Of a stretch of 32,000 nucleotides of DNA, positions 4,973 to 15,078 are shown piece by piece (the first letter of the stretch is position 1; the number at the start of each line of letters is the position of its first letter). A program made the translations under genes and the position numbers. The DNA comes from Sinorhizobium meliloti (GTDB lineage Bacteria; Pseudomonadota; Alphaproteobacteria; Rhizobiales; Rhizobiaceae): positions 480,001-512,000 of the forward strand of contig NZ_JAGIOS010000002.1 of assembly GCF_017876815.1 (NCBI RefSeq), written 5' to 3'. Below the pieces are notes generated by a model, which did not search any database, had not been told where the DNA came from, and saw only the letters and a list, made by a program, of their open reading frames with translations.

Positions 4973-5413
4973 TCAGCCGCTTCGATTGGACTGGTTGTGG
5001 GATCCACCGGGCTCGGTCACGCCCTTCAGGCCGGTGCCGGCCATTTGCGGTTGTTCACGGGCCGCGTCGGCGAGCGAGACTATCCCGACCAGCTGCTTGT
5101 CATGGTTCACGACGGGCAGCCGTCGAACCTGGATGTCGCCCATGTTGCGCGCGACATCGTCCACCTCATCGTCGTCGAAGCAATATTTCACGTCCGTGGT
5201 CATGATGTCGGCCACCCGTGCCTGAGGGTCCATACCATCGGCAACGCCGCGCACGACGATGTCTCTGTCCGTTATCATGCCGATCAGGCGGTCGTCGTCT
5301 CCGACCGGCATGAAGCCGATATCGTTTTCCGCCATCTGCCGCGCAACAGCCGTTATGGTGTCGTTGGGGCTTGCAAGATGAACGTCTCTTGTCATGATCT
5401 CCGATACACGCAT
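4973..5413 (-). CDS. CBS-pair domain protein
   Basis: 146 aa with two CBS motifs (MTRDVHLASPNDTITAVARQMAENDIGFMPV and IMTTDVKYCFDDDEVDDVARNMGDIQVRRLPVV). GAAGGAG lies 7 nt before the ATG. Confidence 0.9.
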   Translation of the reverse strand: MRVSEIMTRDVHLASPNDTITAVARQMAENDIGFMPVGDDDRLIGMITDRDIVVRGVADGMDPQARVADIMTTDVKYCFDDDEVDDVARNMGDIQVRRLPVVNHDKQLVGIVSLADAAREQPQMAGTGLKGVTEPGGSHNQSNRSG

Positions 5414-5426
5414 TTGTTTTCTCCTT

Positions 5427-5465
5427 CACGTTTCATCGGCACGTTTCATCGGCACGTTTCATCGG
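5427..5465 (-). repeat. Perfect 3 x 13-bp tandem direct repeat in the DUF2934-CBS intergenic leader
   Basis: The forward strand reads CACGTTTCATCGG three times (5427-5439, 5440-5452, 5453-5465). On the transcript this is CCGAUGAAACGUG x3, ending directly at the CBS Shine-Dalgarno sequence. Confidence 0.9.
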
Positions 5466-5499
5466 CGGCCCGGAATGCTCAAGCCGCCGTGACGGCCGC

Positions 5500-5814
5500 T
5501 CAGCGCCCACCGTCCGGGCGAGCCGCCGGATTTCCTTCGGGCGAAGCGGGTGCCCCAGCCCGCGCCGCGGTCTGCTTTTCGCGCCGCCTGCTGCCGTTGG
5601 CCTGGACCTCGCTCTCCGGCGCGGAGCCGTCTCTCTGCGTTTCCTGTCCTGGCATTTCCGGTCCCTGCATTTCCGGTCCCTGCATTTCTCTGGCCGCCTG
5701 CTCCCAGTGGCGCTGATGCTGCCCGTCCGGCCGTCCCTCCTGCTCCCAGATCGCATAGGCTCTGCGCCTGATGAGCTCTTCCCGTTCGTTGTCCATATCC
5801 CTTAGCTCGTCCAT
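5500..5814 (-). CDS. DUF2934 domain protein
   Basis: The N-terminal REELIRRRAYAIWEQEGRPDGQHQRHWEQAAREM matches the DUF2934 signature (RAYxxWExxGRPxGxxxxxW). AAGGGA precedes the ATG. An internal 15-bp tandem repeat (5652-5696) encodes EMQGP-EMQGP-EMPGQ. Confidence 0.8.
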   Translation of the reverse strand: MDELRDMDNEREELIRRRAYAIWEQEGRPDGQHQRHWEQAAREMQGPEMQGPEMPGQETQRDGSAPESEVQANGSRRREKQTAARAGAPASPEGNPAARPDGGR

Positions 5815-5856
5815 GTCCCTTACCTCGCCGCTGGACTTCGTTGATGGCGAGTTTCA

Positions 5857-5881
5857 AACGGCGCGACCGTCCATTTGTTCC
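5857..5881 (-). promoter_or_regulatory. EcfG-type (general stress ECF sigma) promoter, perfect GGAAC-N16-CGTT
   Basis: The minus strand reads GGAAC AAATGGACGGTCGCGC CGTT. The -10 element ends 43 nt upstream of the DUF2934 ATG (5814). Confidence 0.7.
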
Positions 5882-5907
5882 CCCCCGGCTAGATCCGCGC
5901 GGGACCT

Positions 5908-6072
5908 TCATATGTGCTTTGGCGGCTCCGGATTTTCGTCCGGATTAGGGACCGGAATTTCATCCGGAAGGCGGTCTGGATCAGGCTCTTCGATCGGCGG
6001 TTCCGGATACCATGGCGGCAAGTCCGGCGGCGGCGGCTCGGGTACTGGCACCGGCTGACGCGGGTTCGGCAT
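5908..6072 (-). CDS. 54-aa proline/acidic-rich microprotein (hypothetical)
   Basis: Internal ATG 6072-6070 is preceded by GGGAGA. The product is MPNPRQPVPVPEPPPPDLPPWYPEPPIEEPDPDRLPDEIPVPNPDENPEPPKHI. An EcfG-like motif lies upstream. The longer track ORF (to 6222) would run through its own putative promoter. Confidence 0.45.
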   Translation of the reverse strand: MPNPRQPVPVPEPPPPDLPPWYPEPPIEEPDPDRLPDEIPVPNPDENPEPPKHI

Positions 6073-6118
6073 TTTCGTCTCCCTTGAGCATGCGGGGGCG
6101 ACACCCCTCTTTCGGGAC

Positions 6119-6143
6119 AATCCCGACCGTGCGTGATTGTTCC
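6119..6143 (-). promoter_or_regulatory. EcfG-like promoter, GGAAC-N16-GATT
   Basis: The minus strand reads GGAAC AATCACGCACGGTCGG GATT, 47 nt upstream of ATG 6072. Confidence 0.45.
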
Positions 6144-6173
6144 GCCGCCGGCGCAGGGAACGGGGCGAAGCGC

Positions 6174-6199
6174 GGAACCCTTTGGGTCGATCGCGGGTT
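6174..6199 (+). promoter_or_regulatory. EcfG-like promoter, GGAAC-N17-GGTT
   Basis: GGAAC CCTTTGGGTCGATCGCG GGTT, 41 nt upstream of ATG 6240. It is divergent from the 6119-6143 motif. Confidence 0.45.
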
Positions 6200-6239
6200 T
6201 GACCCAACATCAGCAAGAGCAAAAGCCAGGAGAGAGCCC

Positions 6240-6983
6240 ATGCCCAGACATCCGGACTATGGCAGATACGATCCCTACGGCCGTCGCGATTGGGCCCGCC
6301 GCGACTGGGAGAACGAGCGCCACCGCGACCCTTACAACTATGGATCCGAGCGCCGCGGTCGGGCGCGCAGCCGCTTCGATGAGGATGTCGAGCCGCGTGG
6401 CGCCGACTACGAGAGCTCGATGTCGTGGCCGACCGGGAGCTACCGCGGCGGCGAAAGCGAACGCGAACGCTGGAACGACGACGACTACGATCGCAGGGGC
6501 CGCGAGCGTTATTTCAGGGATTATCACGGGCCCGGTTATGGCTATCGCGGCGAGGGCCGTTACCGCGGTTATGGAGGTTACGGCGAAACACGCGATTATC
6601 GCCGCGACCGCGATTTTCTCGACCGCGCCAGCGACGAGGTCGCTTCCTGGTTCGGTGACGAAGATGCCGAGCGCAGACGGGAGATGGACCGGCACCGGGG
6701 CAAGGGTCCGAAAGGCTACAGGCGCACCGACGGCCGCATCCAGGAAGATGTCAGCGACCGCCTGAGCGACGACGGCGCTCTCGACGCCTCCAACATCGAA
6801 GTGAGCGTGACGAACGGCGAAGTACAGCTCCACGGGTCGGTGAGCTCGAAATGGGCGAAACGCCGCGCCGAGGACTGTGCCGAAAACGTATCCGGGGTCA
6901 CGAATGTACAAAACAATCTGCGCATAGAGACGGCGGATACCGGCACTGTCCAGCAGAACCCGAACCTCACCGATCTTAGTTGA
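6240..6983 (+). CDS. SWFGD/BON domain protein with a disordered R/D/Y/G-rich N-terminal half (hydrophilin-like)
   Basis: ATG 6240 is preceded by AGGAGAGAG. The SWFGDEDAERRR motif is followed by KGPKGYRRTDGRIQEDV and a C-terminal BON-like segment (IEVSVTNGEVQLHGSVSSKWAKRRAEDCAENVSGVTNVQNNL). The track ORF start (6012) is upstream of the promoter motif and is unlikely. Confidence 0.8.
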   Translation: MPRHPDYGRYDPYGRRDWARRDWENERHRDPYNYGSERRGRARSRFDEDVEPRGADYESSMSWPTGSYRGGESERERWNDDDYDRRGRERYFRDYHGPGYGYRGEGRYRGYGGYGETRDYRRDRDFLDRASDEVASWFGDEDAERRREMDRHRGKGPKGYRRTDGRIQEDVSDRLSDDGALDASNIEVSVTNGEVQLHGSVSSKWAKRRAEDCAENVSGVTNVQNNLRIETADTGTVQQNPNLTDLS

Positions 6984-7061
6984 GGCGATTGCGTGCGTGC
7001 GAGCCGAGGAGCGCCGCGTAAGCTTGCGCGGCGTCTTTGCCTAGATCAGCGGAAGGCGCGC

Positions 7062-7083
7062 GGAAAACCGCACACACTTTTCC
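7062..7083. repeat. Dispersed intergenic repeat core (GGAAAACCGCACACACTTTTCC), with a second copy at 26788-26809 in opposite orientation
   Basis: The reverse complement of 26788-26809 is GGAAAACCGCTACACACGTTTC, which differs from 7062-7083 by one indel and one mismatch. Both copies are intergenic. Confidence 0.6.
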
Positions 7084-7152
7084 TCATCCCGCTCTTAGCT
7101 AAGGCCTATCGAGATACCGCGGCGGCTTGTTTGATTTCCTCATCCCTGTGCT

Positions 7153-7256
7153 CGTCACAGGGATCCAGCCAGACCAAGTCCTTGGGCTGAAACAACGCTT
7201 CCCGCGCCGCAGACGCGGCGCTGCTCTCATCTCTGTGACAAGCACAGAGATGAGAG
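7153..7256. repeat. RIME/REP-like mosaic of three palindromic hairpins between convergent genes
   Basis: ATCCCTGTG-ctcgt-CACAGGGAT (7153-7175), GCGCCGC-agac-GCGGCGC (7204-7221) and CTCTCATCTCTGTG-acaag-CACAGAGATGAGAG (7224-7256). The CCCTGTG..CACAGGGAT type palindrome is familiar from rhizobial intergenic mosaic elements, from memory and not verified. Confidence 0.55.
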
Positions 7257-7361
7257 CGAGGAGAAATTGCGCCCGGCTACCTTGTCCGCACCGCCCTACG
7301 CGTCGACAAAAGCAATCATCTTGAAGCAGCCGTCAAAACTCGAGATGAATCTCAACAGGCC

Positions 7362-8504
7362 TTAGCTGGAAGCTCGCCGCTCTTCTGCGACCGATTTTGC
7401 CTGCCGCGCCCTGGAGCGCGCCGAGCGCTGAAGAAAGCTCAGCAAGCGCTGTTCCTCCACACGCAGTTCGCTGTCCAAGCGCCCGCGCGCCTGAAGCTGC
7501 CGTGCCGAGATCGAGGCCGACTTGTCGGCGAGAGCGAGCACATCGGGATGAATGTAGCTGCTCCGGCTGATGGCGGGGGTGTTGTGAAGAACGGACGCAG
7601 CCGCTTCGCTCATCTGTTTGATCGTCGGCCACTCGCCCTGTTCGATCGAAGTCCGGGCGGCCGTGAAAGCCGCGAGAGTGCCGCCCCAGGTCCGGAATGT
7701 CTTTGCAGAAACCGCTGTTCCGGCCACATCTGAAAGGTACCGGTTGAGCCGCCCGGAATCGACCGGCCGCAGGACGTCGTTTTCATCCTTCCAAACGAAA
7801 AGCTGTCTGCCCGGCAGATCCGCGATCTCTTCGAGCAACTGCTGCAATTTGGGGCGGCGGAGCAGGCGCTGGACGCGCTTGCCGCCCTTGCCGATGAATT
7901 TCAGCTCTATGAAGCCATCGCCCAGCCTGAGATGCCGCTTCAGCAGCGTCGTGGCACCATAGCTCCCATTGGCCTGCACGTAAGCCTGGTTGCCGGTGCG
8001 CAGATGGGCTTCGTCCAGCAGGGCCACCAGCGCAGCGAGCACGGTTTGCATGTTTTCCACGTCGCCCTGCATGTGGCGCCGTATGGTGCGGCGTATCTTG
8101 GGCAATGCCTTGCCGAATTCCACCAGTTGCGCGAATTTGTCGGCGCTCCTGAGAGCCTGCCACTCGCTGTGATAGCGGTACTGTTTTCGTCCGCGCGCAT
8201 CGTAGCCCGTAGCCTGCAGATGCCCCCGTTCTTCGAGGCAGATCCAGACGTTGTCATAGGCAGGCGGCAGGCCCAGCGCCGCTATGCGGCTTTTGATCAA
8301 CGGATCGGTAACGATCGAGCCGTCCGGCATTCGGTAGACAAACCCCTTGCCACGCCTTTGCCGCCGGATGCCCGGTTCGCTGTCGCTGACATAGACGAGC
8401 CCGGTTTCCTCGGGCACGTGACCGGCCGCCGCCAGGTTCCGCGGACCATCCGCGATCACGCAAGGCGGACATTCGAGCACGTCGACCGACGTTGCTCTAG
8501 CCAT
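7362..8504 (-). CDS. Bacterial (poxvirus-like) type IB DNA topoisomerase
   Basis: Start taken at ATG 8504-8502 (MARATSV...), with GGAGGGAGG just upstream. Family-typical GLVYVSDSEPGIRRQRRGKGFVY, HLQATGYDARGRKQYRYH, KFIGKGGKRV, SAKTFRTWGGT and a C-terminal catalytic-Tyr context SRSSYIHPDV. The start overlaps the glgX stop by 8 nt. Confidence 0.85.
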   Translation of the reverse strand: MARATSVDVLECPPCVIADGPRNLAAAGHVPEETGLVYVSDSEPGIRRQRRGKGFVYRMPDGSIVTDPLIKSRIAALGLPPAYDNVWICLEERGHLQATGYDARGRKQYRYHSEWQALRSADKFAQLVEFGKALPKIRRTIRRHMQGDVENMQTVLAALVALLDEAHLRTGNQAYVQANGSYGATTLLKRHLRLGDGFIELKFIGKGGKRVQRLLRRPKLQQLLEEIADLPGRQLFVWKDENDVLRPVDSGRLNRYLSDVAGTAVSAKTFRTWGGTLAAFTAARTSIEQGEWPTIKQMSEAAASVLHNTPAISRSSYIHPDVLALADKSASISARQLQARGRLDSELRVEEQRLLSFLQRSARSRARQAKSVAEERRASS

Positions 8505-10593
8505 TGCCTCCCTCCTGCGGCACGAAGGCGACGACGCTCTGCGCCGGGATAGTGTTGCGATCCGCGCTGGCGCGCATGCCGAACGGTTCGTCGGCTGCCG
8601 TGTCGAGCACGCGTAGCCAGCGCCTGCTTCCATTTCCGTGGGGCAGGGCTATCTCGCAATCACCGCCGGCATTGAGCACGAGGACGATCTCGCCGGCCGG
8701 CGGAGCTTCGACCTGCCCGACACGGCAGATATAGGCGCAGATCAGGCGGAGCTCAGCGTCGTGCCAGGCGTCCTCGTCCATCGGGTTGCCATCCGCCTTG
8801 TACCAGGCGATTTCGACTCGTCCATTGTCGTCGGGCTCTCCGTCGAGGAATCGTTCCTGCCGCAGGACAGGATGGTCCTTGCGGAAGGCGAGGAGCTTTC
8901 GGCAGAAATCCACGAAGCCATCGTCCGCCCCGCTCCAATCGAGCCAACCGATCTCGTTATCCTGGCAATAGGCGTTGTTGTTGCCCTGCTGGCTGTTTCC
9001 CAGCTCGTCGCCGCCGAGCACCATCGGCACGCCCTGGCTGATCATCAGGGTGGCGAGCATGGCCGCCCGCCGTCGCTTGCGGGCCTCGATGATCTCTCCG
9101 TTGTCGGTTGGGCCTTCGGCGCCCATGTTGTCGGAATGATTGTCGGAGTGACCGTCCCGGTTCTCCTCGCCGTTCGCCTCGTTGTGCTTTTCGCCGTACG
9201 AGACCGTGTCTGTCAGGGTGAAGCCGTCATGGGCGCTTACCAGGTTGATCGACGAGGTCGCGGCACGATCCGAATGCCTGAACTGAACCGGCGAGCCGAG
9301 AATGCGCTCGGCAAGCACCGGAACCATGCCGCCATCTCCCTTCCAGAAGCGCCGGACATCGTCGCGGAACCGGTCGTTCCATTCGCGGAACGGCGGCGGG
9401 AAACCGCCGAGCTGATAGCCGCCCTCGCCGACGTCCCAGGGTTCGGCGATCAGCTTCACACCCGCCAGAATCGGATCCTGCCGGATCGCGTCGAAAAAGC
9501 CGCCTTCGCGATCGAACTCCATGTATTCGCGGCCGAGCGTGCTTGCGAGATCGAAGCGGAAGCCGTCGATATGCATCACGCCCACCCAGTAACGCAGGCT
9601 GTCGAAGACCATGCGCAGCACCAGGGGATGGGCAACATTGAGCGTGTTGCCGGTGCCCGTCGTGTCGTAGGTGTGGCGCGGCTTGTCCGGCGACTGGCGG
9701 TAATAGCTGAAATTGTCGAGCCCGCGGAAGCTCAAGGTCGGGCCGCGTTCCGAACCCTCGGCCGTATGGTTGTAGACGACATCCATCAGAACTTCGATGC
9801 CGGCGGAATGAAACCGCTTCACCATCGTCTTGAATTCGGTAAAGCGGTCGCCCTTGAGATAGCGCTCGTGGGGAGCGAAGAATCCGAGCGTCTGATATCC
9901 CCAATAATTTCTGAGGTTCCGCTCCACCAGGTAGCGGTCGTCGAGGAAATACTGCACCGGCATCAATTCGATCGCCGAAACGCCGAGCTTCGTCAAGTGC
10001 TCGATGATCGGATCGCTCGCCATGCCGAGAAACGTGCCACGCAGCTCGTCCGGCACGCCGGGATGCGTCATGGTCATGCCGCGGACATGCGCCTCGTAGA
10101 TGATCGTTTCGGTCCAGGGACGGCGGATCGCTTCTTCGCCCGCCCAGTCGAAAGTCGGGTCCTGAACGACGCCCTTTACCATGAAGGGGGCGCTGTCGCG
10201 CTCGTCGAAGGAAAGATCGCCCTCAGGGCTGCCGATCGTATAGCCGAAGAGGGCATCGTCCCAGATGAGCTCACCCGCGACCAGCTTGGCGTAGGGGTCG
10301 AGCAGCAGCTTGTTCGGATTGAAGCGGTGACCATTGTGCGGGTCGTAAGGTCCGTGGGCGCGGTAGCCATAGAGGGTGCCGGGACCGATACCCTCGATGT
10401 AACCGGACCAGATATCGCCCTCGCGCTTCGGCAGAGGCATACGCGCCGTTTCCTCGCGTCCATCCTCGGAAAACAGGCAGAGTTCGATCTTCTCCGCATG
10501 CGCCGAGAAGACCGCAAAATGCGTCCCCTGCCCGGTGTATTCTGCACCGAGTTCAGGTTTCATGAAATCGAGTTCTGAAAAAGTCAGGTTCAT
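8497..10593 (-). CDS. glgX: Glycogen debranching enzyme GlgX (GH13 isoamylase type)
   Basis: 698 aa. LGAEYTGQGTHFAVFSAHAEKIELCLF, YGYRAHGPYDPHNGHRFNPNKLLLDPYAK, VYNHTAEG, DGFRFDLAS, EPWD and VSAHDGFTL are the GH13 conserved regions. GAGGG precedes ATG 10593. Confidence 0.92.
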   Translation of the reverse strand: MNLTFSELDFMKPELGAEYTGQGTHFAVFSAHAEKIELCLFSEDGREETARMPLPKREGDIWSGYIEGIGPGTLYGYRAHGPYDPHNGHRFNPNKLLLDPYAKLVAGELIWDDALFGYTIGSPEGDLSFDERDSAPFMVKGVVQDPTFDWAGEEAIRRPWTETIIYEAHVRGMTMTHPGVPDELRGTFLGMASDPIIEHLTKLGVSAIELMPVQYFLDDRYLVERNLRNYWGYQTLGFFAPHERYLKGDRFTEFKTMVKRFHSAGIEVLMDVVYNHTAEGSERGPTLSFRGLDNFSYYRQSPDKPRHTYDTTGTGNTLNVAHPLVLRMVFDSLRYWVGVMHIDGFRFDLASTLGREYMEFDREGGFFDAIRQDPILAGVKLIAEPWDVGEGGYQLGGFPPPFREWNDRFRDDVRRFWKGDGGMVPVLAERILGSPVQFRHSDRAATSSINLVSAHDGFTLTDTVSYGEKHNEANGEENRDGHSDNHSDNMGAEGPTDNGEIIEARKRRRAAMLATLMISQGVPMVLGGDELGNSQQGNNNAYCQDNEIGWLDWSGADDGFVDFCRKLLAFRKDHPVLRQERFLDGEPDDNGRVEIAWYKADGNPMDEDAWHDAELRLICAYICRVGQVEAPPAGEIVLVLNAGGDCEIALPHGNGSRRWLRVLDTAADEPFGMRASADRNTIPAQSVVAFVPQEGGNG

Positions 10594-10634
10594 TCAGTCG
10601 CGCCCTCTACCGCCTTGCCCGGCAGCTTTGATGC

Positions 10635-10659
10635 AACGCGACGGGCAGGCATTTGTTCC
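10635..10659 (-). promoter_or_regulatory. EcfG-type promoter, perfect GGAAC-N16-CGTT, upstream of glgX-topIB
   Basis: The minus strand reads GGAAC AAATGCCTGCCCGTCG CGTT. The -10 ends 42 nt upstream of the glgX ATG (10593). Confidence 0.7.
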
Positions 10660-10680
10660 TCTCCCCGAACGGGTGCCGGG

Positions 10681-10706
10681 GGAACTTTCCCAGCCTTCGG
10701 CCAGTT
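10681..10706 (+). promoter_or_regulatory. EcfG-like promoter, GGAAC-N17-AGTT, upstream of treZ
   Basis: GGAAC TTTCCCAGCCTTCGGCC AGTT, 30 nt upstream of ATG 10736. It is back-to-back with the glgX promoter motif. Confidence 0.45.
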
Positions 10707-10735
10707 CCTCGCCTTTCATCTCGAGGGACATATCG

Positions 10736-12541
10736 ATGCCGGCAGGTTCGACGCGTGCACATTTCAGAAACAGCTGGGGCGCGAATTTCATCGACGGCGA
10801 CACATGCCGGTTTCGTTTGTGGGCTCCCGACGAGCGGGGCGTCGATCTGGTTCTCGGCGGCGCCGCGCATAAGATGCAGTCGCTCGACGGCGGCTGGTTC
10901 GAAATCACGCTCGCGGCGAAGGCGGGAGAGCGCTATTGCTTCCGCCTTGCCGACGGCACCAAGGTGGCCGATCCCGCCTCCTCGGCACAGGAGCGGGAAG
11001 CGTCGGGTACTTCGATCGTCGTCGATCACGCCGCCTATGAATGGCAGGCTTTCTCCTGGCGCGGCAGGCCCTGGGAGGAGGCGGTCATTTCGGAGTTGCA
11101 TGTCGGCTGCTTCACGCCGGAGGGCACCTTCCGCGCTGCAATCGAGCGCTTGCCGCATCTGGCAGAGGCCGGAATCACTGCGATCGAGATCATGCCCGTC
11201 GCGCAATTCCCCGGTGTGCGGGGCTGGGGCTACGACGGCGTGCTGCACTATGCTCCGCACAATGCCTACGGGAAGCCGGATGACCTGAAGGCGCTCGTGG
11301 ATGCGGCCCATTCGCTGGGTCTGACGGTCCTGCTCGATGTCGTTTACAACCACTTCGGCCCGGAGGGGAATTATCTTTCGCGCTATGCGAGCCGCTTCTT
11401 CAACAAGGATCGCCCGACACCGTGGGGGGCGTCGATCGCCTTCGAGGAGGAAGCGGTCCGGCGCTATTTCATCGAGAACGCGCTCTACTGGCTCGGCCAT
11501 TTCCGTTTCGACGGATTGCGTCTCGATGCGACCGAACAGATCCGCGATACGACCAAGCCGCATTTTCTCGTCGCGCTGGAGCACGAGCTTCGGCACACGT
11601 TCGCCGAGCGGCAAATCCACCTGGTGCTGGAAGACGCTCACCGCCGCAGAAGCCTTCTGCAGCGCGACGCGAGCGGCGCGCGCATGCTTTTCGATGCGGC
11701 ATGGAACGACGATCTTCACAATGCCCTCCACGTCGTGGCGACCGGCGAAACCAAGGGCCACTATCGCCTTTTCGCGGACGAGCCCTGGGGCAAGATCCGC
11801 AACGCGCTGACCGAAGGCTTCGCCGTGCCGGCAAAGGAGGACAATTTCTCTCCTGAGGGGAGCCGAGCCCGCGTGCCGCCGCAAGGCCGCGTGAATTTCC
11901 TGCAGAACCACGACCAGATCGGCAACCGCGCCTTCGGCGAACGTCTCGCCTCGCTCCTCCAGGAGGACAGCCTGCGCGTGTTGGCGGCCATGCACATGCT
12001 GACGCCGCAAATCCCTCTCCTGTTCATGGGTGAAGAATACGGCGAGACGCAGCCCTTCTTTTTCTTCTCCGACTACCAGGGGGAAATAGCCGAGGCTATC
12101 CGGCTGGGACGCCGGGACGAAGCCGAAAATTTCGGCGGCCTTCCAGAGGGCAAGACGATGGATGATCTGCCCGATCCGCTCGACCCGGACGTCTTTGCCG
12201 GTTCGAAGCTACGTTGGAACCGCGCGACAAGCCCTGCCGGCGAGCGGCATCTTGCCTATATGCGCGACCTCGCCGGGATAAGGCAGCGGCACATCGTACC
12301 GCTGATCGCCGGCACCGCCGTACCGGATGGCCGTGCATACGAGACCAAGGACGGCATCATCGCTGTCGACTGGCAGTTCGGGGAGGCTTGCCTGGAATTG
12401 CGCGTCAATCTTTTGCACGAGACACACGCCGTACCCGCAATACGCGGTCAGCCGATCTTCGCGAGCGAAACGTCCGGTGTCGAGACCGTCTACGGCAGCG
12501 AGTTGGCCGGCCCTGGCATCGTCGTCGCCATTGCACGGTGA
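10736..12541 (+). CDS. treZ: Malto-oligosyltrehalose trehalohydrolase TreZ (GH13)
   Basis: ATG 10736 is preceded by GAGGGA. HFRNSWGANFIDGDTCRFRLWAP is a typical TreZ N-terminus. Also VYNHFGPEGNYL, DGLRLDATEQI, VLEDA and NHDQIGNRAFGERL. Confidence 0.9.
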   Translation: MPAGSTRAHFRNSWGANFIDGDTCRFRLWAPDERGVDLVLGGAAHKMQSLDGGWFEITLAAKAGERYCFRLADGTKVADPASSAQEREASGTSIVVDHAAYEWQAFSWRGRPWEEAVISELHVGCFTPEGTFRAAIERLPHLAEAGITAIEIMPVAQFPGVRGWGYDGVLHYAPHNAYGKPDDLKALVDAAHSLGLTVLLDVVYNHFGPEGNYLSRYASRFFNKDRPTPWGASIAFEEEAVRRYFIENALYWLGHFRFDGLRLDATEQIRDTTKPHFLVALEHELRHTFAERQIHLVLEDAHRRRSLLQRDASGARMLFDAAWNDDLHNALHVVATGETKGHYRLFADEPWGKIRNALTEGFAVPAKEDNFSPEGSRARVPPQGRVNFLQNHDQIGNRAFGERLASLLQEDSLRVLAAMHMLTPQIPLLFMGEEYGETQPFFFFSDYQGEIAEAIRLGRRDEAENFGGLPEGKTMDDLPDPLDPDVFAGSKLRWNRATSPAGERHLAYMRDLAGIRQRHIVPLIAGTAVPDGRAYETKDGIIAVDWQFGEACLELRVNLLHETHAVPAIRGQPIFASETSGVETVYGSELAGPGIVVAIAR

Positions 12542-12560
12542 CACGCCATCGGCAGACAGT

Positions 12561-12585
12561 GGAACATGCCCTGAGCCTCACGGTT
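12561..12585 (+). promoter_or_regulatory. EcfG-like promoter, GGAAC-N16-GGTT, upstream of the UdgX-like gene
   Basis: GGAAC ATGCCCTGAGCCTCAC GGTT in the 86-nt treZ-udgX gap, 43 nt upstream of ATG 12628. Confidence 0.5.
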
Positions 12586-12627
12586 AGACATCGCGGCGAG
12601 AACAAAGAGGGAGAGTCTCGAGGAACG

Positions 12628-13269
12628 ATGCCGAAACAGCTTGCGAACCTTGGCCCGGCCCTTGCCGGCGAACACGCCGAGGCAACGACGATTGCCTCTC
12701 TGCGGCGGCAGGCGGAGGGGTGCGAGCGCTGCGACCTCTACAAGAACGCTACGCAACTGGTCTTCGGCGAGGGTCCGGTCGACGCCCGTGTCGTGCTCGT
12801 CGGCGAACAGCCCGGCGACCGCGAGGACCTTGCCGGGCGCCCGTTCGTCGGACCCGCCGGGCGCATCCTGGACGAGTGCCTGCACGAAGCCGGCATCGAC
12901 CGGTCGGAATGCTATCTCACCAATGCCGTTAAACACTTCAAATTCGAACAGCGCGGCAAGCGCCGAATGCATTCGCGGCCGAACGCCGGTGAGATTCAGG
13001 CCTGCGCCTGGTGGCTCGGCGCCGAACTCGATGAGCTCCGCCCCGAAATCGTCGTCGCGCTCGGGGCAACGGCGCTGATGTCCCTGCTCGGGCGAAGCGT
13101 GGGTGTCACCAGGAACCGCGGCCAGCTTCTGACGGCCCCCGGGGGCTTCTCCGTGCTCGTGACCATCCACCCCTCCTATCTTCTGAGAATCCGAGGCCGA
13201 TCCGACCCCGAAGCGGAACGCGCCCGGTTTGTCGACGATCTCGCTAAGGTGGCGACTCGCATCGGTTGA
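12628..13269 (+). CDS. udgX: Family-4-related uracil-DNA glycosylase of the UdgX type (GEQPG motif plus KRRMH loop)
   Basis: ATG 12628 is preceded by GAGGAA. Fe-S cysteines are present (CERCDL, ECYLTN, QACAW). Motif A is LVGEQPGDRED..GRPFVGPAG and motif B is IHPSYLLR. The insertion NAVKHFKFEQRGKRRMHSRP corresponds to the KRRIH loop that defines M. smegmatis UdgX. Confidence 0.8.
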   Translation: MPKQLANLGPALAGEHAEATTIASLRRQAEGCERCDLYKNATQLVFGEGPVDARVVLVGEQPGDREDLAGRPFVGPAGRILDECLHEAGIDRSECYLTNAVKHFKFEQRGKRRMHSRPNAGEIQACAWWLGAELDELRPEIVVALGATALMSLLGRSVGVTRNRGQLLTAPGGFSVLVTIHPSYLLRIRGRSDPEAERARFVDDLAKVATRIG

Positions 13270-13273
13270 CCGG

Positions 13274-13996
13274 TCAGGACTGCCGGTCGAGTTCCGGATA
13301 GTGGCGGAAGACGCAGGATTCGTTGAAGGCAAGCCGCCGCTCCGAGGCCAGATAGCTCAGAATTCTCGGCCGTGCACGAACGGCATCGTGCAAGGCGACC
13401 AGTCCGGGAATGTTTGTCTCATAGGCATCCATCGCCTTGGGAAAGGCATAGCGAAGTCCTTCGATCACCTGGAAAAGCGAAAGATCGACGTAGCTCAGCC
13501 GGTCCCCGACCATATGTTCCGGGCCCCTGGGATTTTGTGTGAGCACGCGTTCGAAATAGCCGAAAAACTTCGGCAGGCGCTCCGAGAGGAAATCGGCCGA
13601 CCGCCTCAGCGCTTCAGGCTTCTGGTCCTCATAATAGAGCGACAAGGCGACCGGATGGTGCGTGTCGTGAATCTCCGCGACGAAGTCGGTGATCGTCAGC
13701 TGCAGACCATTGGTGAGGGTTCGAAGCCTCTCGTCCTCAGCAACGAGGCCGAGCCTCGGCCCGAGATAAAAAAGTATGTTGGCGACGTGGCTTATGACGA
13801 GGTCGCCATCGATGAGGAACGGGGGAGCGAAGGGAGCGGCGGCTTCACCGGGCATCTTCATCAGCTTCAGCATTTCATTCGTGCCGCCCGGCTGGCGGGC
13901 AATGTCGAGGTAATCCGCGCCGGCCTCCTCCAGCGCAAGGCGCACGAATTCACCTCGACCGGGAATGCCGTCCCAGTAATAGAGCTTGTATGGCAT
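13274..13996 (-). CDS. Glutathione S-transferase family protein
   Basis: Internal ATG 13996-13994 (MPYKLYYWDGIPGRGEFVRLALEEAGADY...). GST N-terminal thioredoxin-like and C-terminal helical pattern (SYVDLSLFQVIEGL). Confidence 0.8.
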   Translation of the reverse strand: MPYKLYYWDGIPGRGEFVRLALEEAGADYLDIARQPGGTNEMLKLMKMPGEAAAPFAPPFLIDGDLVISHVANILFYLGPRLGLVAEDERLRTLTNGLQLTITDFVAEIHDTHHPVALSLYYEDQKPEALRRSADFLSERLPKFFGYFERVLTQNPRGPEHMVGDRLSYVDLSLFQVIEGLRYAFPKAMDAYETNIPGLVALHDAVRARPRILSYLASERRLAFNESCVFRHYPELDRQS

Positions 13997-14189
13997 GAAA
14001 GGTCCCCTTCTTTGCCAGCATTCATCTTGGTTCGCCGCCGAAGTCTTTTCCTGGCTCGTTCTCGCCTTTCGCGAACCCCCGTGCTCCGAGCTATCTTCTT
14101 GTATCGGCACGATTGAAGGAAAAATACAGCCGCGGAATTCGTTCCGGTTCGGCAGGGAAACAGAACATCCTGCGTCGAGGAGAAAACCA

Positions 14190-14729
14190 ATGAAAATCGA
14201 AGAGCTCATGTTCGCCGAAAGCGGCGGCGTACCAAACAACCCGCGCCTGCCGGTCCTGGTCTATCGTCAAGCGATCGACGTTACGGAAAATGGAGCCACA
14301 CGGATAGAGGAAAGCTTCAGGGCCAATGGTTGGCGCGGCCTGTGGCGCGACGGCGTCTTTGCCCATCACCATTACCATTGCGGTGCGCACGAGGTTCTCG
14401 GGATCGCGGAAGGCCGGGCACGGCTGCTGATCGGAGGGCCGGACGGTCAGGAGGTCGAGGTCGCTGCCGGCGACGCCATCCTCCTCCCCGCGGGTACGGG
14501 CCACCGCCGGAACGAAGCAAGCGTGGATTTCCTGGTCGTCGGCGGCTATCCGCCGGGGCAGGACGCCGGGATTCAGAGCGGCGCCGCGACCGCGGATGAC
14601 CGTGAGGCGATCGTCTCGGTGCCGCTGCCGAGCCTTGACCCCATTCTCGGCGCCGAGGGACCTGCGGTCACGGTCTGGCAGTCCGCCATGCATGCGGAAC
14701 GCGGTCTCGGCGAACGACAGGGCCACTGA
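14190..14729 (+). CDS. Cupin domain protein (YjlB-like)
   Basis: ATG 14190 is preceded by GGAGAA. HHHYHCGAHEVLGIAEGRARLLIGG...GDAILLPAGTGH is a cupin two-motif pattern. Confidence 0.7.
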   Translation: MKIEELMFAESGGVPNNPRLPVLVYRQAIDVTENGATRIEESFRANGWRGLWRDGVFAHHHYHCGAHEVLGIAEGRARLLIGGPDGQEVEVAAGDAILLPAGTGHRRNEASVDFLVVGGYPPGQDAGIQSGAATADDREAIVSVPLPSLDPILGAEGPAVTVWQSAMHAERGLGERQGH

Positions 14730-14745
14730 TCACTCGCCGCAATCG

Positions 14746-14961
14746 TCAGCGCAGCCAGACGGGGAGATCGGCGGCCGTGCGGCAGCCCGCTGGCCGCTCT
14801 TTCAGTCCCAATTTTTCCCAGGCGAATTTCTGGGCCGCGACCTGTGCCATTTCCTTGGTCTCGTAGATGTCCGGCAGCACATATGCCTTACGGCCACACG
14901 ACAGGAGCGCCCTGTGACTCAGCAGATCGTAGTGAAGCTCGAGGTATTCTTCGGAATGCAT
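14746..14961 (-). CDS. 71-aa hypothetical protein
   Basis: Internal ATG 14961-14959 (MHSEEYLELHYDLL...) is preceded by GGGAGGG. A perfect EcfG motif lies 27 nt upstream. Confidence 0.5.
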   Translation of the reverse strand: MHSEEYLELHYDLLSHRALLSCGRKAYVLPDIYETKEMAQVAAQKFAWEKLGLKERPAGCRTAADLPVWLR

Positions 14962-14987
14962 GGAACCCTCCCAGGTGGCGAGAGGAA

Positions 14988-15012
14988 AACGGCGGCCGTC
15001 GCGGGAAGTTCC
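14988..15012 (-). promoter_or_regulatory. EcfG-type promoter, perfect GGAAC-N16-CGTT
   Basis: The minus strand reads GGAAC TTCCCGCGACGGCCGC CGTT, 27 nt upstream of ATG 14961. Confidence 0.65.
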
Positions 15013-15053
15013 ATGAAGCCCGCCGATTGCTGGGATGGCAAGGGCTGCCCGAC

Positions 15054-15078
15054 GGAACATAGACGTCGCTTCCGAGTT
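15054..15078 (+). promoter_or_regulatory. EcfG-like promoter, GGAAC-N16-AGTT
   Basis: GGAAC ATAGACGTCGCTTCCG AGTT, 25 nt upstream of ATG 15103 and 41 nt from the divergent 14988-15012 motif. Confidence 0.5.

Follow-up and report, generated by a model that had tools for sequence, protein, structure and literature searches.

The glgX2-topIB and treZ-udgX genes of Sinorhizobium meliloti pSymB as a probable part of an RpoE2 general-stress island

The RpoE2 regulon of Sinorhizobium meliloti, named after a general stress sigma factor of the EcfG family, is the described system closest to the locus examined here (Sauviac 2007; PMC3616915; PMC6180224). We analysed a 32 000-nucleotide (nt) stretch of S. 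meliloti DNA (NCBI RefSeq GCF_017876815.1, contig NZ_JAGIOS010000002.1, positions 480,001 to 512,000; hereafter the window), in which two divergent genes for glycogen and trehalose metabolism, glgX2 and treZ, are each followed by a gene for a DNA enzyme, the type IB topoisomerase TopIB and the uracil-DNA glycosylase UdgX, respectively. A preliminary description, made from the letters of the window, had proposed that these four genes form a coordinated dormancy or desiccation package of which no description was known. In the parts of the RpoE2 papers available to us, the same locus (SMb21445-SMb21448) is tabulated as rpoE2-induced. The genes figure there only in tables, udgX as 'DNA polymerase related protein' and treZ as 'glgB2', and neither TopIB and UdgX as stress effectors nor the operon joins are discussed in the searched text. 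Work on RpoE2 in S. meliloti had thus already covered this locus together with its promoters and the co-induction of its genes, and what is seen in the window is an already known stretch of the published regulon on pSymB rather than a new trehalose/DNA-enzyme system.

Several other described systems share features with the locus. In Sphingomonas melonis Fr1, TopIB (#1831), preceded by a high-scoring EcfG motif, treY-malQ-treZ-glgX (#1273-6) and Ku are all EcfG-dependent (Gottschlich 2019, PMC6599016); however, TopIB is unlinked to the trehalose genes there, treY lies within the cluster, and UdgX is not reported. The RpoE2-controlled genes for non-homologous end joining (NHEJ), ku3-ku4 and ligD4 (Dupuy 2019, PMC6379672), show that enzymes of DNA maintenance can come under EcfG control in cells that are not growing, and an EcfG motif is found 5' of ku in most Alphaproteobacteria, a likeness to TopIB. 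The enzymes are different ones, and NHEJ has demonstrated phenotypes, whereas none are reported for TopIB or UdgX. The prototypes of the two DNA enzymes, Mycobacterium smegmatis UdgX and Deinococcus radiodurans TopIB, both known from biochemistry and structures, have catalytic residues and motifs that are kept here apart from one position of UdgX motif B, but the literature examined describes no control of them by a sigma factor of the general stress response. The TopIB gene of a Deinococcus plasmid apparently shares an operon with a gene known by annotation as 'uracil-DNA glycosylase', and not with glgX. Finally, the TreX/GlgX-TreY-TreZ pathway is approached in that GlgX and TreZ here exceed their equivalog cutoffs and the same divergent pair in Shinella carries treY; in S. 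meliloti, though, treY is encoded away from the cluster, so that the pathway is incomplete at the locus.

Our reading is that the four genes are part of an RpoE2 general-stress island, brought together by co-control at the level of the regulon and by a gene order inherited within the Rhizobiaceae. We put its probability at roughly 85%. The evidence consists of the gene identities and catalytic residues, of promoter motifs that are conserved among relatives, and of transcription start sites (TSS) and RpoE2 dependence known from earlier publications. The locus itself is readily placed: window positions 7000-13500 match pSymB of S. meliloti strain ml21 at 99.9%, and the window corresponds gene for gene with the ml21 pSymB record and with strain 1021, for which the window coordinate equals the pSymB coordinate minus 1,366,117. 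The order topIB (SMb21445), glgX2 (SMb21446), treZ (SMb21447), udgX (SMb21448) and the positions of these genes were as first described (Table 1).

Motif searches gave a clear excess of EcfG/RpoE2-type promoters. The window has three copies of the strict form, GGAAC-N16/17-CGTT, where 0.48 would be expected, and eight of the relaxed form, GGAAC-N16/17-NGTT, where 1.26 would be expected; a count of eight was reached in 0 of 100 shuffles. All eight relaxed motifs fall in 5857-15078. Seven stand 5' of an annotated gene start in the correct orientation; the eighth, at 10683-10708(-), is the treZ site matched again on the opposite strand. The observation of these genes together with these motifs is confirmed and well above chance. 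A purely fortuitous juxtaposition, with accidental GGAAC...GTT matches beside genes that are neither co-regulated nor related, has in its favour that the motif is short and that chance would yield the relaxed form about 1.3 times in 32 kb. The excess over shuffled sequence and the correct placement of seven of the eight motifs, their retention in four other taxa, and the published TSS and microarray induction, which already refute such an accident, make it scarcely credible.

The 142-nt spacer between glgX and treZ holds both back-to-back promoters. The stress promoters placed at 10635-10706 in the preliminary description were exact, and both coincide with RpoE2-motif TSS in the available part of the RNA-seq data of Schlüter 2013 (PMC3616915): SMb_TSS3026 at pSymB 1376743(-) for glgX2 and SMb_TSS3028 at pSymB 1376831(+) for treZ, each 7-9 nt downstream of its motif. 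The treZ promoter, over 10681-10708, is a near-perfect palindrome (GGAAC-N18-GTTCC), and the same symmetry is found in S. medicae and Shinella. It is this symmetry that causes the EcfG motif to be matched on the minus strand as well, and glgX-topIB may have a second promoter, further upstream, in this palindromic site. The divergent EcfG promoters of glgX and treZ are kept in 5/5 taxa that have the pair (S. meliloti, S. medicae, S. americanum, Ensifer adhaerens and Shinella). The additional promoter proposed ahead of udgX is present as a motif, in the same position in S. americanum and with one mismatch in S. medicae (GGAGC...CGTT). Since the TSS table of Schlüter 2013, in the part available, gives no separate TSS for SMb21448, this promoter is defined by its motif and is treated as a candidate.

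Table 1. Features of the glgX2-topIB/treZ-udgX locus and its flanks (window coordinates)
Feature	Position	Strand	Description
topIB (SMb21445)	7362..8504	-	Poxvirus-like bacterial type IB topoisomerase, 380 amino acids; second gene of the glgX2-topIB operon
glgX2 (SMb21446)	8497..10593	-	Glycogen debranching enzyme; TIGR02100 1065.7 bits vs cutoff 640.9
glgX2-topIB promoter	10635..10659	-	GGAAC-N16-CGTT, GGAACAAATGCCTGCCCGTCGCGTT; published TSS at about window 10626
treZ promoter	10681..10706	+	GGAAC-N17-AGTT, GGAACTTTCCCAGCCTTCGGCCAGTT; published TSS at about window 10714
treZ (SMb21447)	10736..12541	+	Malto-oligosyltrehalose trehalohydrolase; TIGR02402 718.1 bits vs cutoff 538.8, full length 1-545/545
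Candidate internal udgX promoter	12561..12585	+	GGAAC-N16-GGTT, GGAACATGCCCTGAGCCTCACGGTT; 43 nt 5' of ATG; predicted from the motif
udgX (SMb21448)	12628..13269	+	Standalone UdgX-family uracil-DNA binding/crosslinking glycosylase, 213 amino acids
CBS (SMb21441, -), DUF2934 (SMb21442, -) and BON (SMb21444, +) genes, left flank	4987..6983		Annotation
Divergent EcfG motifs, left flank	5857-5881(-), 6174-6199(+)		Motif search; SMb21444 TSS published (source available in part)
gst12 (SMb21449)	13274..13996	-	Glutathione S-transferase (GST); 1.61 log2 by RpoE2; same RpoE2 island
Divergent EcfG motif pair, right flank	14988-15012(-), 15054-15078(+)		Drive small hypothetical genes; SMb21452 RpoE2-motif TSS (source available in part)

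Dependence on the sigma factor is taken from published microarrays. On rpoE2 overexpression the log2 changes were 2.85 for SMb21445, 3.72 for glgX2, 3.59 for SMb21447 and 2.87 for SMb21448 (Lang 2018, PMC6180224). The four genes are thus co-induced, the absence of which had been named in the preliminary description as grounds for abandoning its proposal. The neighbours SMb21443, 21444, 21449 and 21450 were likewise induced, and a promoter for SMb21442-21441 is tabulated with RpoE2 induction in the same study. Schlüter 2013, as far as available, lists TSS with RpoE2 motifs for SMb21444, SMb21446, SMb21447, SMb21449 and SMb21452, and its table also gives rpoE2-overexpression M values for all four genes. 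According to PMC2651895, which cites Sauviac 2007, glgX2 is among the RpoE2-dependent heat-shock genes.

All four gene identities were borne out by Pfam or TIGR models, and those of TopIB and UdgX also by structure matches. The annotated, homology-supported starts (8504 for topIB, 10736 for treZ and 12628 for udgX) were used. Longer open reading frames (423 amino acids for TopIB, 668 for TreZ and 351 for UdgX) were dropped, because their additional N-terminal stretches show no conservation and would run 130-330 nt into neighbouring genes. TopIB matches the N-terminal domain PF21338 (E = 1.7e-19) and the Topoisom_I core PF01028 (E = 8.1e-24), both over gathering scores, and it matches the D. 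radiodurans TopIB structure 2f4q (E = 1.6e-40) with the catalytic residues aligned. The catalytic R169 (LRTGN), K206 (GKGGK), R271 (RTWG), N308 (NTPA) and Y317 (SSYI) are invariant in a nine-sequence alignment that includes one Deinococcus sequence. SMb21445 is therefore a bacterial, poxvirus-like type IB topoisomerase, and relaxation that needs neither ATP nor Mg and proceeds via a 3'-phosphotyrosyl intermediate is predicted for it.

GlgX carries the CBM48 and GH13 catalytic domains (PF02922 and PF00128 both match), and the gene is annotated as glgX. The ATG of topIB (8504) overlaps the glgX stop codon (8497-8499) by 8 nt, in ATGGCTAG, and a Shine-Dalgarno sequence, GGAGGGAGG, lies within glgX just 5' of that ATG; the join is a typical translationally coupled junction. 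An antisense TSS inside glgX, at about window 9136(+), is recorded in the available part of Schlüter 2013 (SMb_TSS3020, pSymB 1375253+) with an RpoH-type promoter prediction.

UdgX exceeds the TIGR03914 cutoff (289.9 bits vs 189.95) and matches M. smegmatis UdgX structures at E of about 2e-54 (PDB 6ajo, E = 1.9e-54). Motif A of UdgX is defined by GEQPG, with Gln replacing the Ala/Gly of family 4 (PMC10359453); here it reads GEQPGD (residues 59-64), invariant in seven homologues. The R-loop of the KRRIH type is GKRRMH (residues 110-115), in which His115 is invariant and aligns with the crosslinking H109 of M. smegmatis. Motif B, HPS(S/A)(L/V)(L/V)R, is HPSYLLR: His, Pro, Ser and LLR are retained, but every copy from the Rhizobiaceae has Tyr at the fourth position in place of Ser/Ala. 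C32-x2-C35 is also present. A covalent complex with an abasic site or uracil-DNA is predicted for SMb21448. The enzymology invoked in the preliminary description, a phosphotyrosyl intermediate for TopIB and a His adduct for UdgX, fits these conserved residues as far as sequence can indicate. The accounts of UdgX that were consulted treat its physiological role as hypothetical. The spacer between treZ and udgX is 86 nt, and udgX and gst12 are convergent, with 4 nt between their stop codons.

The trehalose side of the locus is incomplete. SMb21447, mis-named glgB2 in older annotation, is treZ, and no TreY is annotated in the window or in the further 12 kb upstream of it. The literature places treY (SMb20574) at another pSymB site. 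It is also missing from the list of RpoE2-induced genes, which includes otsA (+1.2 log2) and glgA2 (+4.5 log2). With treY elsewhere and outside the induced list, the cluster alone is not a self-sufficient trehalose pathway.

Gene order was compared across relatives to weigh the proposal that the locus is a dedicated dormancy or desiccation module, in which trehalose formation and ATP-independent relaxation or marking of DNA are coupled and the gene order reflects that coupling. The complete four-gene order was found in S. meliloti and S. medicae only, the order in the latter being identical down to the BON and GST genes. In S. americanum and E. adhaerens the order is glgX<>treZ-udgX, and topIB is absent; Shinella has treY-CBS-treZ<>glgX-topIB without udgX; in Rhizobium, glgX-topIB is followed by a gene with a LigD polymerase domain and then by a GST gene, with udgX 4-7 kb away and no treZ within 10 kb; and in Neorhizobium EC2-8, treZ, BON, topIB and glgX are dispersed across 15 kb. 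Each DNA gene can therefore be dispensed with in the cluster of close relatives, and the four-gene linkage, which the preliminary description had proposed to profile across Alphaproteobacteria, is limited to two species, relatives dropping topIB, udgX or treZ. Two features of these neighbourhoods are recorded beside this comparison. The Rhizobium gene with the LigD polymerase domain overlaps the topIB stop (L002, 10981-11859; L010, 10984-11859), and LigD-polymerase-like genes are also found within 10 kb of TopIB in two further loci of the survey described below (L030, L069). On E. adhaerens p1 (L092, 4000-20609), some 16 kb around glgX<>treZ-udgX contain 17 EcfG-type motifs, which makes this a very dense general-stress island; it also has glgA, BON, CBS, ferritin-like and DUF1236 genes.

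A wider survey was made by scanning one genome per species with the TopIB alignment, which gave 80 loci from many phyla, and by searching for neighbours within 10 kb by tblastn. GlgX lay directly upstream of TopIB in only one of the 80 loci, that of Rhizobium sp. R635, and within 10 kb in three more, all of Rhizobiaceae; at about 70 non-Rhizobiaceae loci neither GlgX nor TreZ was found within 10 kb of TopIB. In a neighbour-joining tree, the glgX-adjacent TopIBs all fall in one clade, and their adjacency is accordingly scored as having arisen once. Four-gene linkage was not seen in phylogenetically independent lineages, partial sets being limited to the Rhizobiaceae and to that one TopIB clade.

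Associations of the two DNA enzymes with each other, or of UdgX with trehalose genes, did not hold up as general rules. An association of TopIB with uracil-DNA glycosylases was rejected, UdgX being within 10 kb in 2/80 TopIB loci and the Deinococcus-type glycosylase in 0/80. The individual cases are the Deinococcus sp. KNUC1210 plasmid, where the gene annotated 'uracil-DNA glycosylase' overlaps the TopIB start by 4 nt (L009, 2703-4486), and a Phaeobacter inhibens plasmid, where TopIB lies about 3 kb from a pair of radical-SAM and fused-UdgX genes (L005, 5730-11032). The P. inhibens TopIB gene follows a succinate-semialdehyde dehydrogenase gene with an upstream EcfG motif (8518-8542), and it adjoins ligase-associated DNA-damage-response genes. 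A link between UdgX and trehalose outside the Rhizobiaceae was likewise rejected: among six non-Rhizobiaceae or fused-type plasmid UdgX loci, treZ was found in 0/6 and an upstream EcfG motif in 0/6, all six being of the long radical-SAM-associated form. On a Thioclava plasmid (L096, 7167-9992), a radical-SAM-associated UdgX fusion is convergent on otsA (trehalose-6-phosphate synthase), a single case that is probably coincidence.

Taken against this distribution, a dedicated coupled module appears unlikely. The translationally coupled glgX-topIB join, found as an adjacency in Sinorhizobium, Rhizobium and Shinella, the treZ-udgX adjacency and the co-induction of the four genes speak for it. On the other side, beyond the narrow occurrence of the full set and the single TopIB clade, S. 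melonis sets both functions under EcfG control yet leaves them unlinked, TopIB and udgX have EcfG-type promoters of their own elsewhere, treY is neither in the cluster nor in the induced list, and the ATP-dependent ligase LigD belongs to the same regulon. The argument from ATP independence, that such enzymes would serve when ATP-dependent gyrase and base excision repair are limited, is not specific, because this regulon controls both Ku and LigD. Of the earlier interpretation, the genuine RpoE2/EcfG promoters and the co-induction stand; the undescribed, self-contained coupled unit does not, the four genes being a slice of a larger published island.

Some points nevertheless weigh against the reading as an island held together by its regulon. 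The 8-nt overlap of glgX and topIB here, with a gap of 9-16 nt in Shinella and Rhizobium, is tighter than a loose island needs; treZ and udgX are adjacent in three Sinorhizobium species and in E. adhaerens, where they overlap by 4 nt; and the divergent sugar pair has one of the DNA enzymes on either side. There may be some selected co-dosage. Read-through from treZ into udgX and activity of the udgX promoter are what we infer from sequence, and mutant phenotypes of SMb21445 and SMb21448 did not appear in the searched literature.

The four genes sit at the centre of what we propose to be a roughly 10-kb island, from about SMb21441 to SMb21452, that RpoE2 would transcribe from many separate promoters. 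BON, CBS, DUF2934, GST and cupin genes also belong to it, several with an EcfG-type motif of their own. The gst12 gene accompanies udgX in S. medicae, S. americanum and Rhizobium, and it has an RpoE2-motif TSS in strain 1021 in the available part of Schlüter 2013 (PMC3616915). Comparison with that record shows the gst12 promoter, at 14120-14145(-), to read ...GTATGTTT in strain 1021 and ...GTATTTTT in this strain, a G-to-T change in the -10 element that may weaken the promoter here. An RpoE2-induced signal from the SMb21444-SMb21445 spacer was reported by Lang 2018 (PMC6180224). An Rfam search of the whole window gave zero matches, and sigma-70 promoters and intrinsic terminators within 6900-14300 did not exceed shuffled expectation.

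The island could also be a horizontally mobile stress cassette, passed as a block between secondary replicons of the Rhizobiaceae, its order reflecting the history of transfer and neither vertical descent nor function. All examined Sinorhizobium, Rhizobium, Shinella and Ensifer copies lie on large plasmids or chromids, and the BON-topIB gap (6984-7361) contains, at about 7157-7303, the Sm-4 repeat known from a small RNA screen of strain 1021 (PMC2780559). However, GC content is even over the region and its flanks (0.61-0.64), the annotation shows no transposase or integrase within the island, and identity declines with taxonomy, from 91% in S. medicae to about 65% in Rhizobium and Shinella. 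We hold such mobility to be very improbable as an explanation of the locus; it is, moreover, compatible with a regulon-level island rather than an alternative to it.

Stress control of the two DNA enzymes appears to extend beyond this locus. An EcfG motif was found on the coding strand within 350 nt 5' of TopIB in 19/42 alphaproteobacterial loci and in 1/42 other loci (Fisher p = 3.6e-6), the former including Rhodobacterales, Sphingomonadales, Caulobacterales and several Hyphomicrobiales. The S. melonis TopIB data agree with this enrichment. In Rhizobium, where udgX stands away from treZ, it has a positionally conserved GGAAC-N16-GATT. In Rhodobacterales, Azospirillum and Agrobacterium vitis, no EcfG motif was found 5' of the long UdgX fusions that are associated with radical-SAM genes. 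Literature on TopIB or UdgX as general-stress effectors was not found, and searches combining UdgX with topoisomerase IB, or EcfG with uracil-DNA, returned no papers. TopIB and standalone UdgX thus appear to be recurrent effectors of the general stress response, which is the residual and modest novelty of the locus, and both would have physiological roles under stress.

A regulon-level island would work as follows. Release of RpoE2 from its anti-sigma factor would raise several functions together. The two outward RpoE2 promoters would give one glgX2-topIB mRNA and one treZ mRNA, the latter probably reading on into udgX, which is probably also served by its own RpoE2-type promoter in the 86-nt spacer. 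GlgX2 and TreZ would increase alongside otsA and glgA2, encoded elsewhere, and favour the conversion of glycogen to trehalose. TopIB, as a cofactor-independent DNA relaxase, and UdgX, as a suicide enzyme that excises uracil and caps abasic sites, would increase together with Ku and LigD, whose genes are likewise at other sites. What connects the four genes would then be their common sigma factor and an order inherited in one bacterial family, with no dedicated biochemical coupling.

As a new module the locus carries little weight, since a self-contained unit finds no support in the comparison of genomes. It is doubtful that the glgX-topIB and treZ-udgX joins have been selected such that a trehalose enzyme and a DNA enzyme with a covalent intermediate are co-dosed on each arm of the bidirectional promoter; if they were, vitrifying cells would relax their DNA through TopIB and cap uracil and abasic lesions through UdgX in step with trehalose. 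A weaker claim is more likely, namely that the general stress response of Alphaproteobacteria has TopIB and standalone UdgX among its conserved core effectors, with a putative role in DNA maintenance in quiescent cells. The connection to stress genes has been hidden by old labels, 'glgB2' for SMb21447, 'DNA polymerase related protein' for SMb21448 and 'topoisomerase I' for SMb21445. With an EcfG-type promoter at TopIB in almost half of the alphaproteobacterial loci sampled, and the standalone UdgX of the Rhizobiaceae under stress control, phenotypes of the two enzymes may best be sought in cells that are desiccated or not growing.

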